DNA of 57,407 nt from Escherichia coli (lineage in GTDB: Bacteria; Pseudomonadota; Gammaproteobacteria; Enterobacterales; Enterobacteriaceae). Within the stretch, counting starts at the first letter, position 1. The number at the start of each line of letters is the position of its first letter. This document shows positions 54,740 through 55,867 of the stretch, one piece after another. The notes under the pieces were generated by a model. That model did not search any database. It was not told the origin of the DNA and saw only the letters and a list, made by a program, of their open reading frames with translations. A program made the position numbers and the translations under genes. The stretch lies in assembly GCF_003334315.1 (NCBI RefSeq), contig NZ_QOWR01000028.1, one strand, 5' to 3'.

Positions 54740-55867
54740 TTAACGGCGTCTATAGCCTTCCTCTAGCACCGCCTGTGTTCGAACGAGTTCATCTGCGAGT
54801 CGTTTCTCATCAGGTAGTTGCATCTTATATTCGCTTGCCAGAACGGTGTTAGGCAAACCTGCCAGAGCATAATGCGCTTCTCCGGCTCCTTTCTCTGCAC
54901 AGAGAACCAGACCGATGGGCGGATTTTCATCCGGTAGCGTCCAGTGCTCTTTGGCGTAGTTGAGATACATATTCATCTGTCCGGCATCGCTATAGCTGAA
55001 TTTGCCCACTTTTAGATCGACGATTAGCAGGCAGCGTAAACGGCGGTGGAAAAACAGCAGATCGACACGAAACCAGTTGTCATCAATGCGTAACCTTCGC
55101 TGCCGACCAACAAAGGCAAAATCATCCCCAAGTTCCAGCATGAAATCCATCAGGTGGTTGATCAGCGCCTCCTCAAAATCGGATTCTGAATATTCATCTT
55201 TCAATTCCAGAAATTCGAGCACAAAGGGATCGCGTATCGCCTGTTGCGGAAGAATATGCGTCTCGGCAGGAGCGTGTTGTTGCAGCATGGCTGATTTGTC
55301 ATGTGACAGTAGTGTCCGCTCATAAAACTGGGTCGCAATTTGCCGCTCTAGCTGGCGAACAGACCAGCCACAGCGGAGCGTCTCTTTTTCATAAAAGCTG
55401 CGGGCGTCAGCGTTTTTAACGGAAAGTAAACGGACGTAGGTGGACCTGGGCAAGGGGAAAGATTTGGCAGACAGCGTCTGCCAAATCTTTGCCGATGGGA
55501 ATTCTGCAGACGGTGTCTGCGGAATTCCCAATGGTGTTAATTCGCCAGACATTGTCTGGCGAATTTCAACATGTTGAAAAAAGAGGTAAAAAAGCCTCAT
55601 TTGGCGTAAGTTTTTTGCAGAGAACCCACGCTTATACCTTAGACATAAATCCTTTGATAGTCGCTTGATTAGCTGCGCACCATACGCAGCCCTGGCCTCG
55701 CCACCTTGTTCAAATTCGACAATTCGTCGGCCAATTTCCTGGTACGTCGCGGTCATTAACGCGTTAACGCTACGTACCGTTTCCGTCCGGGCGCTATCGA
55801 CCAGATGAATAATACCGTCGTGGATTTGCTGGTAGCCTGCTGTGGTTCCTTCTGAGAGCGATTCCAT
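54740..55867 (-). CDS. yhcG: DUF1016-family putative nuclease (PD-(D/E)xK-like C-terminal domain)
   Basis: 375 aa ORF; C-terminal region (VDLLFFHRRLRCLLIVDLKVGKF) resembles a restriction-endonuclease-like core. Confidence 0.9.
   Translation of the reverse strand: MESLSEGTTAGYQQIHDGIIHLVDSARTETVRSVNALMTATYQEIGRRIVEFEQGGEARAAYGAQLIKRLSKDLCLRYKRGFSAKNLRQMRLFYLFFQHVEIRQTMSGELTPLGIPQTPSAEFPSAKIWQTLSAKSFPLPRSTYVRLLSVKNADARSFYEKETLRCGWSVRQLERQIATQFYERTLLSHDKSAMLQQHAPAETHILPQQAIRDPFVLEFLELKDEYSESDFEEALINHLMDFMLELGDDFAFVGRQRRLRIDDNWFRVDLLFFHRRLRCLLIVDLKVGKFSYSDAGQMNMYLNYAKEHWTLPDENPPIGLVLCAEKGAGEAHYALAGLPNTVLASEYKMQLPDEKRLADELVRTQAVLEEGYRRR
55461..55566. repeat. three tandem hairpin palindromes inside the yhcG CDS
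   Basis: 55461-55489 AGATTTGGCAGACAGCGTCTGCCAAATCT; 55498-55530 GGGAATTCTGCAGACGGTGTCTGCGGAATTCCC; 55540-55566 AATTCGCCAGACATTGTCTGGCGAATT. Confidence 0.9.

Follow-up and report, generated by a model that had tools for sequence, protein, structure and literature searches.

REP/BIME sequences and their RAYT partners combine hairpin-forming palindromes of ~30 nt with a nuclease/transposase gene that they often flank; they are hot spots of recombination and insertion and lie between convergent genes. REPs are extragenic and imperfectly paired, carry GTAG/CGTC tags, number tens to hundreds per genome, and go with an HUH/Y1 transposase. RPEs are selfish repeats of 100–150 bp found in many unrelated genes of one genus, where their palindromic DNA is translated in frame in surface or loop regions that tolerate change. 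Nucleotide conservation and covariation inside the coding sequence (CDS) of a nuclease gene are known from the omega-RNA/reRNA of TnpB/IscB, a long multi-helix scaffold that has a guide segment and sits at the 3′ end of the ORF. In the type III toxin–antitoxin system ToxIN, tandem 36-nt ToxI repeats precede the toxin gene behind a terminator, form pseudoknots, and are cut by the endoribonuclease. Intragenic auxiliary operators (lac O2 in lacZ, gal OI in galE) are palindromic protein-binding sites within a CDS whose half-sites conserve the contacted bases and do not covary. Perfect inverted repeats also coexist with protein coding in the mitochondria of Nematomorpha, where they reach 284 bp, are lineage-specific, and encode conserved protein regions (PMC6649704). 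For inverted repeats in Proteobacteria, template switching is a known mutational route that keeps the arms identical (PMC5941160).

The coding hairpin of the DUF1016/YhcG gene family that we describe here is not a named repeat family, as the preliminary description of the Escherichia coli locus had already suggested, and it is undescribed in Rfam or the searchable literature. Like the REP/BIME–RAYT pairs, it ties a hairpin of about this size to a nuclease gene, with recombination around its copies and a copy between convergent genes. Unlike REPs, it is found mainly inside the CDS, is nearly perfectly paired, and belongs to a PD-(D/E)XK nuclease. It resembles RPEs in being translated in frame in a loop tolerant of change, and differs from them in its length (27 nt), its restriction to one gene family and one homologous codon, and its age, which exceeds that of the phyla carrying it. 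Covariation within a nuclease CDS recalls omega-RNA, whereas the DUF1016 element consists of simple hairpins, single or few in tandem, in the first third of the ORF. Structured tandem units of ~36–39 nt and variable copy number at a defense-type nuclease gene recall ToxIN; unlike ToxI, the DUF1016 units are translated within the nuclease, which has a different fold from the ToxIN enzyme, and most homologues have one unit. As with the auxiliary operators, the site lies in a CDS and some members have a second site between promoter and start codon, but the DUF1016 hairpin covaries at every stem position and most members have the internal site only. Compared with the Nematomorpha repeats, it is short, lies where the protein has an unconstrained loop, and has a structure conserved across domains of life.

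The gene yhcG occupies positions 54740–55867 (minus strand) of the window, the whole 57,407-bp stretch of E. coli DNA that was analyzed, and codes for a 375-aa protein (ORF translation and RefSeq annotation). The core CAGAC-N3-GTCTG occurs four times in the window (54706, 55468, 55507, and 55546), against a mean of 0.03 in shuffled windows, none of which reached four (0/100). This confirms that the palindromes in and near yhcG, first noticed from the sequence alone, are real and far above chance. Three copies lie in frame within the ORF on the minus strand, where the translation reads ...VEIRQTMSGELTPLGIPQTPSAEFPSAKIWQTLSAKSFPLP... Copy 1 (55539–55565), the 5′-most in yhcG and at the ancestral position, encodes (E)IRQTMSGEL and can be drawn as a 12-bp stem with a 3-nt loop or as perfect 13-nt arms with 1 nt between them (DNA fold of −13.1 kcal/mol). 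Copy 2 (55497–55529) encodes GIPQTPSAEF and has 15-bp arms with one mismatch, T.G on the plus strand and C.A on the coding strand. Copy 3 (55458–55490) encodes KIWQTLSAKS and has perfect 15-bp arms around a 3-nt loop (−15.3 kcal/mol); its extended 18-nt arms are 94% complementary. The solo copy 4 (54700–54724), with 11–12-bp arms (perfect 12-nt arms), lies in the 59-bp gap between the convergent genes nanQ (yhcH) and yhcG. It has ~12 nt of flank in common with copy 1, as members of a 40-nt repeat family, and it is in the yhcG reading phase, so that read-through would give RRR, a stop, and then FQRFRILQTVSAES, including RILQTVSAES.

Copies 1–3 form a tandem array of three 39-bp (13-codon) units at 55458–55574 (minus strand), each unit comprising the 27-nt palindrome and 12 nt of flank. 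The preliminary description had recognized in-frame, related peptide repeats of this length, and the ORF translation bears it out. Its palindromes also stand, with positions off by 1–3 nt and with a start-to-start spacing of exactly 39 and 39 bp rather than ~39–42 bp; the fourth copy that it placed 14 bp beyond the yhcG stop codon is present, 15 nt past it. Tandem Repeats Finder made no call at the array because the units are only 69–79% alike. The 151-nt coding-strand RNA of the array is predicted to fold into three hairpins (−69.6 kcal/mol, z = −12.4), and single copies fold as single-stranded DNA of either strand with −10.8 to −15.5 kcal/mol (z = −5.7 to −9.5). A covariance model trained solely on the hairpins of foreign DUF1016 homologues in an unbiased sample (described below) found exactly four sites in the window, at 28.6–37.3 bits (E ≤ 1e-5). 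These were copy 1 (37.3 bits), copy 2 (28.6–30.1 bits), copy 3 (29.9 bits), and copy 4 (36.9 bits). The model found no fifth copy in the 57-kb window, the next best site scoring 18 bits.

Across the family, the element can be defined as a 27-nt palindrome, W4-N7-C(R-S-Y)G-N7′-W4, with an AATT-like base and a 12-bp stem whose 3-nt loop is closed by C:G. We assembled an unbiased set of 75 distinct homologues, sampled through peptides of the nuclease domain only. At the hairpin spot, 57 of the 75 homologues had a palindrome with 10 or more of its 12 positions paired, and in a control region 2 of them did (Fisher p = 1.8e-22); about a quarter of the sampled homologues had no clear palindrome. A pattern scan of species-representative genomes retrieved at least 120 loci from very diverse phyla. 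Among the 120 pattern matches listed, 87 were located at a YhcG-like gene or no more than 400 nt from one, and another 10 were beside gene fragments, which brings the matches at DUF1016 genes or gene fragments to 97. The phase was the same (ATT as an isoleucine codon) in 61 of 62 matches within a CDS, drawn from the 64 loci with a delimitable ORF. The element ranges over Proteobacteria, Firmicutes, Bacteroidota, Acidobacteriota, Cyanobacteria, and Methanoperedens archaea, with one hairpin that keeps its codon and phase in distant phyla and in at least one archaeon, and most family members have this single internal hairpin only. Judged from these comparisons, one hairpin copy is evidently ancestral and intrinsic to the whole DUF1016/YhcG gene family, and we regard a family-wide element with paired arms as nearly certain.

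This distribution bears directly on the origin proposed in the preliminary description, which saw in the palindromes a miniature palindromic element, perhaps absent elsewhere, that had been inserted into a linker of yhcG and triplicated. A recent REP-, RPE-, or MITE-like mobile insertion would agree with short palindromes in frame in a tolerant loop, as RPEs are, with a copy number that differs by strain, and with solo copies in nearby intergenic DNA. It is at odds with the shared codon and phase of one copy in orthologues and in distant homologues from different phyla and an archaeon. Nor is the motif dispersed through the genome: BLAST with the palindrome found it at 1–6 places per E. coli genome (median 3), and the copies whose position was examined were all in or beside the nanQ–yhcG–gltD locus. 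The window holds no further copies, and its sequence shows neither terminal repeats nor target duplications nor a GTAG tag. A mobile-element origin, to which we give very little credence, is refuted by the family-wide conservation; the local triplication alone survives.

Other named classes were also rejected as identities of the element. REP/BIME sequences do not match, with three located E. coli copies intragenic rather than dispersed and extragenic, arms with at most one mismatch, and ends that lack a GTAG or CGTC tag. The whole unit is one 27-nt palindrome with no visible flanking duplication, unlike a MITE, and its near-perfect pairing without bulges over 27 nt, with no integrase array at the examined loci, separates it from integron attC sites, which are imperfect palindromes of 57–141 bp that have R″-L″/L′-R′ boxes and extrahelical bases. 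Rfam returned only chance-level microRNA-like matches below 24 bits for the E. coli region and no gathering-level match for six loci with copies in untranslated regions. A terminator scan of positions 54500–56100 reported none of the four sites, whose tails are not T-rich, and a promoter scan placed no feature at the palindromes. A −1 frameshift signal was discarded from reading the sequence: the T6 run that precedes copy 1 by 17 nt is out of phase and specific to E. coli. Searchable papers on yhcG, DUF1016, COG4804/PF06250, and PDC-S02 contain no description of the element.

The pattern of substitution suggests what has been retained. In the pattern-selected set, positions left free by the pattern were complementary in 97, 91, and 82% of copies, versus 25% by chance, with 24 different arm triplets. 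In the unbiased set, 94% of cells were paired and compensatory double changes were found at 12 of 12 stem pairs; the covariation score was 0.768, against 0.184 when shuffled (reached in 0/500 shuffles) and 0.04–0.14 in slid controls. Homologues of at least 80% identity differed at 31% of mid-stem positions, which were nonetheless paired, compared with differences of 4 and 2% at the stem top and base. Stem top and base are conserved clade by clade, and conservation of the closing pair, the class of loop, and the base extends across clades and G+C contents. A pairing of the two loop ends (d = 1) was rejected: A:T occurred 28 times where base composition predicts 28.5, and there was no covariation. 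The loop is therefore of 3 nt, and a perfect duplex-type palindrome centered on 1 bp finds no support. Interior mismatches comprised 8 of G:T type and 21 of A:C type, with no excess of G.U on the sense strand; this asymmetry comes from 29 mismatches only and may be confounded by codon constraints (e.g., lysine preferred over glutamate).

The encoded peptides, by contrast with the pairing, can be wholly different between homologues (IRQTMSGEL, IANALRSQF, and IVVSLIRQL). Where an arm codon starts with A, a complementary partner would read TAA, a stop codon, and a mismatch is found instead. The alternative that palindromic DNA encodes a conserved peptide, I-x-Q-T-x-S-x-E, by coincidence draws on the pattern-selected alignment, in which conservation of Q, T, and S reaches 90% or more. 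In the unbiased sample, however, the pairing is conserved and the peptide is not. Furthermore, the covariation joins the wobble position of one codon to the second position of another, which has no protein-level rationale, and the palindrome is kept in copies outside the coding sequence. The preliminary description had looked to distant homologues carrying the peptide without palindromy as a sign of coincidental structure; the opposite is seen, with palindromy kept where the peptide is completely different. Coincidence thus has a negligible probability in our view, and the alignments show base pairing, rather than peptide, to be what the family conserves. Selection, and not mutation bias alone, probably maintains the element, although template-switch correction can keep inverted repeats perfect without it (PMC5941160).

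In E. coli, yhcG carries one to three in-frame copies depending on the strain. Copy 1 is the sole copy in O157:H7 and in the 349-aa alleles, other alleles have two, and Salmonella, Citrobacter, and Kluyvera have one, which in Salmonella and Citrobacter is at codon 102. The three tandem 39-bp units of K-12-type strains comprise one ancestral copy and two lineage-specific in-frame duplications, in keeping with the tandem amplification first envisaged. We also identified several strain-to-strain rearrangements that start or end at or beside the palindromes. For example, an O104:H4-type replacement has its breakpoint at the distal edge of copy 3 (the BLAST match ends at window position 55462), and the L206 sequence places the junction at the distal end of the conserved arm of this copy (after ...GCCAAAT). 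A mosaic patch of ~180 bp (55448–55627, minus strand) is centered on the array: in windowed comparisons of the window allele with that of strain 2014C-3599, the two yhcG alleles are 60–65% identical in the patch and at least 93% identical elsewhere, the last 48 nt excepted. One solo palindrome lies on each side of the gltF-yhcADEF-yhcG island, and strains without the island keep one hybrid palindrome. One E. coli yhcG allele has an 80-bp frameshifting deletion, and the translation of a 391-aa natural variant (P0021) reads through copy 4. A simple insertion of yhcG into an empty site was considered and rejected for FDAARGOS_1291; no clean cassette boundary can be defined in this comparison because the junctions differ and the sequence upstream of yhcG has no palindrome.

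Copies outside the ORF are found in other lineages as well. In a clade of Firmicutes, they lie between promoter and ribosome-binding site, after a TGnTATAAT −10 box and 10–22 nt before the ATG, and occur again just past the stop codon; their stem is often that of the internal copy. The 5′UTR copies do not sequester the ribosome-binding site. Locus L077 has the gene between two copies of a 51-nt direct repeat that includes the palindrome. A single sequence specificity for all the copies in a locus is contradicted by E. coli and by loci L069, L086, and L204. Because stems differ within a locus, recognition would be of the shape, loop, and base and not of the whole sequence.

The host protein has the conserved domains PF17761 (DUF1016_N; residues 19–184, E = 1.3e-36) and PF06250 (YhcG_C PD-(D/E)XK; residues 208–360, E = 1.6e-56), and NCBIfam has no model for it. 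It also matches PADLOC PDC-S02 (PDLC04807; residues 9–370, E = 2.8e-131), which makes YhcG a member of a candidate single-gene phage defense family; many of the PDC-S02 models are fragments that end or start near residues 100–110. In the AlphaFold model, the hairpin-encoded peptide is a loop between two helices with pLDDT below 50. The loop is thus predicted to be disordered and tolerant of change, consistent with the linker first suggested. The nuclease domain resembles NucS/EndoMS, Bax1, and Can2 and, by profile analysis, archaeal Holliday-junction resolvases (PMC1189080). The helical N-terminal domain has weak ParB/KorB-like matches, and no RNA-binding domain was detected in YhcG. Deletion of yhcG is synthetically lethal with hypomorphic alleles of dnaB, dnaN, and parE (PMC2672614). 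The family comprises 55,337 clusters at 50% identity. At the loci examined, the gene often lies inside hsdM-hsdS operons with overlapping stop and start codons; its neighbors include a tyrosine recombinase (one locus) and a relaxase, and no recombinase is consistently linked to it. Conserved neighbors of the family were not found in earlier work either (PMC1189080).

The palindromes are copies of an ancient structured nucleic-acid element embedded in frame at a fixed point of the N-terminal domain. Their best explanation may be a cis-acting DNA hairpin or cruciform recognized by the gene's own structure-specific nuclease, a reading to which we assign a probability of about 0.4. The palindrome would extrude as a hairpin or as a cruciform with a four-way junction, and the extruded structure would be the preferred ligand of YhcG. 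Binding inside the gene would then exert a host-independent negative feedback on a potentially toxic, horizontally mobile defense nuclease. As a side effect, changes in copy number, deletions, the mosaic patch, and the island boundaries in E. coli would follow from the fragility and recombinogenicity of palindromes. Pointers to the DNA level and to the gene's own product are the lack of a sense-strand G.U excess, the clade-wise conservation of stem top and base around a fast-changing but paired mid-stem, the 5′UTR and post-stop copies of the Firmicutes, the resolvase-like domain, and the synthetic lethality. A mid-ORF site is unusual for feedback control and is the only site in most members, and own-product recognition with feedback is advanced here tentatively. 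A palindrome of 12 bp extrudes poorly in vivo without strong supercoiling, which counts against the extrusion step. In broader terms, the hairpin might be the cognate nucleic-acid ligand of the DUF1016 nuclease, its ORF carrying its own structured DNA or RNA partner, although we regard this as rather doubtful.

Effects of the hairpin on the mRNA would not require recognition by YhcG. The hairpin could throttle translation through the universal host machinery and hold a toxic nuclease at a low, host-independent level, acting as an elongation roadblock in the ORF, hindering initiation from 10–22 nt before the ATG, and perhaps protecting the mRNA from 5′/3′ decay. The very stable predicted fold of the array RNA and the location of every copy within or next to the transcription unit (5′UTR, ORF, and just past the stop) are consistent with such a role; tandem amplification would tune its strength, and internal hairpins could set relative expression in the hsdM-hsdS operons with overlapping stop and start codons. 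Yet G.U is not above A.C on the sense strand (8 versus 21), unlike in typical selected RNA helices, and a throttle would not need a conserved C:G closing pair, R-S-Y loop, and AATT base. The sites also have no terminator-like features and no Rfam relative, and the 5′UTR copies leave the ribosome-binding site free, so that we consider control at the mRNA level unlikely. A self-encoded RNA (or DNA) cofactor or antitoxin, with hairpin RNA from the gene's own transcript holding the nuclease inactive or guiding it, is suggested by the analogies with ToxI repeats and with omega-RNA overlapping tnpB/iscB. A covarying hairpin inside the ORF of its would-be user, clade-wise conservation of stem top and loop as for a recognized hairpin, and a single-gene defense candidate without a partner gene point the same way. 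Against these stand the DNA-type PD-(D/E)XK fold, the failure to detect an RNA-binding domain, wobble pairs not favored on the sense strand, and the single hairpin of most members; a processed small RNA is hypothetical, and we find the cofactor highly improbable.

A functionless, self-perpetuating quasi-palindrome could have arisen once in a stretch coding for a tolerant loop, its arms being kept perfect ever since by template switching within a strand during replication, which copies a change from one arm to the other. In E. coli, perfect inverted repeats show more conservation than expected and a template-switch correction model has been proposed for them (PMC5941160), and the fast-changing yet paired mid-stem is what arm-to-arm copying in a single event predicts; unstable copy number and neighboring sequence and an unconstrained loop peptide fit as well. 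Occupancy of the same codon in about three quarters of the unbiased sample, across phyla and in an archaeon, is nevertheless hard to square with deletion-prone palindromes. The conservation of closing pair, loop class, and base irrespective of clade or G+C and the recurrence of extra copies at specific non-coding spots (5′UTR and just past the stop) also make a functionless origin quite unlikely. Alternatively, the element could be a DNA recombination site that mobilizes or reshuffles DUF1016 genes through cassette excision and insertion, exchange of N- and C-terminal modules, or on/off switching by deletion. The palindrome-bearing repeats on both flanks of the L077 gene, the E. coli island and its hybrid palindrome, the O104:H4-type replacement that begins exactly at the edge of copy 3, the mosaic patch, the PDC-S02 fragments, and the tyrosine recombinase and relaxase among the neighbors would all suit such a site. 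The dominant single internal copy, however, cannot define a cassette, no recombinase is consistently linked, and the breakpoints can be a passive result of palindrome fragility. Furthermore, an odd-length center misfits the 2-bp or 6–8-bp crossover cores of serine and tyrosine recombinases. A dedicated recombination site therefore has a low probability.

The element accounts for local genome variation in E. coli: the yhcG alleles with one to three copies, the O157:H7 pseudogene, the O104:H4-type replacement, and whether the gltF-yhcA-G island is present. A warning for annotation follows as well, since DUF1016 genes that look "frameshifted" or split tend to be broken at the hairpin. Selection for pairing that overrides protein sequence at one fixed spot for a very long time is rare in bacterial coding regions. 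DUF1016/YhcG is one of the larger uncharacterized nuclease families, present in type I restriction-modification operons and mobile elements, and the hairpin consensus provides a concrete and cheap handle on its function. If the gene does encode the nucleic-acid partner of its own product, this partner could serve for self-recognition, as an inhibitor in the manner of an antitoxin, or as a cofactor, and it would control the firing of the nuclease and drive recombination at the locus. DUF1016 would then represent a new class of protein-plus-embedded-hairpin system, contained in a one-gene module.

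The 375-amino acid ORF on the minus strand (54740..55867) is the E. coli yhcG gene, which is convergent with nanQ (yhcH) and contains three palindromes within 55440–55590. The repeat search of the window gave copy 1 (55539–55565) perfect 13-nt arms, copy 2 (55497–55529) 15-nt arms with one mismatch, and copy 3 (55458–55490) 18-nt arms that are 94% complementary. The preliminary description had recognized these palindromes, although its coordinates were off by 1–3 nt and its spacing of ~39–42 bp is exactly 39 bp. Translation of the ORF confirmed its proposal that the three copies are in frame and encode related peptides (EIRQTMSGEL, GIPQTPSAEF, and KIWQTLSAKS), and the fourth copy that it placed past the yhcG stop is present at 54700–54724. 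The CAGAC-N3-GTCTG core occurs four times in the 57-kb window, against a shuffle mean of 0.03 (0 of 100 shuffles reached four), and a family of 40-nt direct repeats takes in copy 4 and ~12 nt of its flank. The coding-strand RNA of the array is predicted to form three hairpins (-69.6 kcal/mol, z = -12.4), and each copy is predicted to fold equally well as single-stranded DNA of either strand. On the minus strand, the copy 4 region (54686–54751) continues the reading phase of yhcG beyond the stop. Read-through (RRR*FQRFRILQTVSAES) would produce a peptide resembling the hairpin segment of the gene, FQ(R/H)(I/V)EI-x-QT-x-S-x-E, 5' flank included; translation does continue through copy 4 in a natural 391-amino acid E. 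coli variant (protein P0021).

A pattern scan of one genome per species (ATTNNNCAGACNNNGTCTGNNNAAT) recovered at least 120 loci. The matches listed came from Bacteroidota, Firmicutes, Acidobacteriota, Myxococcota, Verrucomicrobiota, Gemmatimonadota, Planctomycetota, and Cyanobacteria, as well as Actinobacteria, Burkholderiales, Elusimicrobia, and the archaeon Methanoperedens. A YhcG-like gene was at or within 400 nt of the palindrome in 87 of the 120 matches listed, and HMM searches found gene fragments beside it at 10 more. Among the 64 loci with a delimitable ORF, 61 of the 62 matches inside coding sequences had the same phase (ATT read as Ile). The 100 gene-associated copies had 24 distinct arm triplets, yet the six pattern-free positions were complementary in 97, 91, and 82% of them (25% expected by chance); complementarity fell to background more than 14 nt from the center. 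For an arm codon starting with A, perfect pairing would demand a TAA stop in the other arm; such copies have a mismatch instead, indicating that coding and pairing constraints coexist. Tandem expansion of the unit also recurs in unrelated lineages. The homolog in one Deferribacteres MAG (locus L084, 1372–2538) contains an internal stop codon and a tandem run of four or more units in partial decay (IWQTLSAKS, ICSTLSHKS, IISTTSRKS, and APTLSAKS); the peptide of its first unit is the same as that of E. coli copy 3. Solo palindromes with no DUF1016-like ORF within 1.5 kb were observed in a Legionellales MAG (locus L044, 4089–4136, two overlapping copies 23 nt apart) and at ~22 other pattern loci, with complementarity still prevailing at the free positions (80, 66, and 57%).

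Because the pattern used in the scan is biased toward copies with a CAGAC core, we assembled a second sample of homologs retrieved only via two peptide motifs from their C-terminal nuclease domain. Of 75 distinct genes, 57 had 10 or more of the 12 positions paired in the best palindrome of the homologous 270-nt region, compared to 2 of 75 when a control region of these genes was scored (Fisher p = 1.8e-22), and 53 of the 57 palindromes were in the same phase. The core was often other than CAGAC, as in AATTGCGAACGCGCTGCGTTCGCAATT (PIANALRSQF), AATTGTCGTATCACTGATACGACAATT (AIVVSLIRQL), and AATTTGCTACACACTGTGTAGCAAATT (AICYTLCSKL). In 43 distinct sequences, 94% of the cells were paired and both sides had changed at all 12 stem pairs, with a covariation score of 0.768 versus 0.184 after shuffling (0 of 500 shuffles reached 0.768) and 0.04–0.14 in slid controls. 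The constant features were an AATT-like base, a closing C:G pair (41 of 43), and an R-S-Y loop whose ends do not covary, which defines the structure as a 12-bp stem with a 3-nt loop. When 150 representatives of the 55,337-cluster family were tested at the protein level only, hairpin-compatible 9-mers were identified in 77 of them, up to four in tandem, versus 18 after shuffling. Furthermore, a covariance model built solely from the 43 foreign sequences picked out the four E. coli sites (28.6–37.3 bits) and no others in the 57-kb window, where nothing else scored above 18 bits. These analyses demonstrate a family-wide, pairing-constrained palindrome that is embedded in frame and tandemly amplified in E. 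coli. The encoded peptide is not the target of selection. Coincidental peptide conservation is refuted as the origin of the palindrome, as the peptides differ across the nuclease-motif sample while pairing is kept.

The number of units varies among strains and genera. YhcG protein clusters of 349, 362, 370, 375, and 382 amino acids correspond to one, two, or three 13-residue units. E. coli O157:H7 has one hairpin copy and an 80-bp deletion, and its yhcG is annotated as frameshifted. Aligned to window 55380–55640, the deletion in strain F6667 (locus L001) takes out copies 2 and 3 and causes a frameshift (annotated pseudogene); an in-frame, 78-bp version in other E. coli strains yields a 349-amino acid protein. 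The allele of strain 2014C-3599 (92% identical) has two intact copies, with arms that are different yet again complementary, and a decayed third. Salmonella, Citrobacter, Kluyvera, and others have one unit, with a 10–11/12 palindrome at codon 102 at the DNA level. The single copy in these genera and the variable counts in E. coli support the proposed triplication, as a lineage-specific event; one copy, however, is not an insertion.

The preliminary description also read the palindrome as an inserted miniature element. BLAST identified only 1–6 palindrome places per E. coli genome, almost all chromosomal, which is at odds with this reading. Between gltF and gltD is an additional solo copy, 10 nt away from the stop codon of gltD (E. 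coli W60, locus L205, 1201–1231), so that this copy and copy 4 bracket the gltF-yhcADEF-yhcG island. Strains without the island, such as E302, have a single palindrome between nanQ and gltD (locus L004, 2606–2636) flanked on the left by sequence like that of the nanQ side and on the right by sequence matching that of the gltD side. In ~11 of 60 evenly sampled genomes (about one fifth of those with the locus), ~470 bp of unrelated DNA replaces the C-terminal two thirds of yhcG and copy 4, with a junction exactly at the distal edge of copy 3. The replacement DNA of O104:H4 FDAARGOS_349 (locus L206, 3140–3630) contains a 101-amino acid ORF annotated as "transposase." A 180-bp patch centered on the hairpins (55448–55627) is only 60–65% identical between the window allele and that of strain 2014C-3599 (locus L002), compared to at least 93% elsewhere except the last 48 nt, a pattern suggestive of a tract of local recombination or conversion, or of accelerated change. 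Many models of the PADLOC candidate defense family PDC-S02, which YhcG matches (window 54743–55867), are fragments with an end or a start near residue 100–110, covering only residues ~5–110 or starting at ~80–120; this suggests frequent splitting or truncation of database DUF1016 genes at the hairpin.

YhcG combines a DUF1016_N domain with a YhcG_C PD-(D/E)XK nuclease domain. In AlphaFold models of single-copy YhcG, the hairpin-encoded residues (~97–114) form a loop (pLDDT <50) between helices 84–96 and 115–121. The nuclease domain resembles NucS/EndoMS, Bax1, and Can2, and profile analysis placed it beside archaeal Holliday-junction resolvases (PMC1189080). The N-terminal domain has no significant structural relative, only weak, recurrent matches to ParB/KorB/Spo0J DNA-binding domains. 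A yhcG deletion shows synthetic lethality with hypomorphic alleles of dnaB, dnaN, and parE, and association of YhcG with HsdMRS and McrABC has been reported (PMC2672614). DUF1016 genes are also located in type I restriction-modification operons, where they separate hsdM from hsdS and stop and start codons overlap (loci L048, 728–5561, and L065, 9251–13433), and near an SNF2/DrmD-like helicase (L024), a TraI relaxase (L034), or a tyrosine recombinase (L014). These neighbors agree with a report that DUF1016 genes are enriched 17-fold beside targets of programmed inversion (PMC9881135). The antisense non-coding RNA G0-10703, induced in stationary phase, is reported to overlap the yhcG 5'UTR by 128 bp (PMC7967276; window 55868–56050). 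Further upstream (56052–57316, minus strand) are two ORFs of 238 and 183 amino acids with signal-peptide-like N termini, presumably the yhcF/yhcE-side fimbrial-type genes of the island.

We tentatively favor a role in cis at the DNA level. The gene's own product, acting as a structure-specific nuclease or DNA-binding protein, would recognize the hairpin or cruciform, and this recognition would provide host-independent feedback, with the fragility of the locus as a by-product; we give this mechanism a probability of about 0.3. The palindrome may instead throttle or stabilize the mRNA. However, interior coding-strand mismatches in the two pooled samples were G:T-type in 8 cases and A:C-type in 21 (small numbers, with codon effects possible), a pattern that gives no hint of the tolerance for sense-strand wobble pairs that an mRNA helix should show. 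It may also be maintained neutrally by template switching (PMC5941160). Among homologs at least 80% identical, 31% of positions diverged in the middle of the stem, 4% at the top, and 2% at the base; the middle need only pair, and the top, loop, and base are sequence-constrained clade by clade.

A recombination or cassette site may be another explanation, as may a self-encoded RNA cofactor or antitoxin. A Firmicutes clade (loci L045, L064, L069, L072, and L086) has an extra copy in the 5'UTR, after a TGnTATAAT -10 box, ending 10–22 nt before the ATG, and sometimes another directly after the stop, the stem often being identical to that of the internal copy. At locus L077, a 51-nt direct repeat containing the palindrome is on both sides of the gene (1138–1188 and 2324–2374) and the internal copy is decayed. 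As to origin, a recently inserted mobile element is refuted.

The preliminary description did not recognize the palindrome as a named repeat family, and the element departs in at least one tested defining feature from REP/RAYT, Rickettsia RPEs, MITEs, intrinsic terminators, attC sites, and all Rfam families. Its nearest parallels are limited to function: the omega-RNA overlapping tnpB, ToxI repeats, intragenic operators, and the coding palindromes of Nematomorpha mitochondria. We found no description of the element in the searchable literature. We rate its general kind, a conserved cis-acting hairpin within a coding sequence, as already known; nevertheless, the chance that nuclease and embedded hairpin together represent a new kind of module is real.
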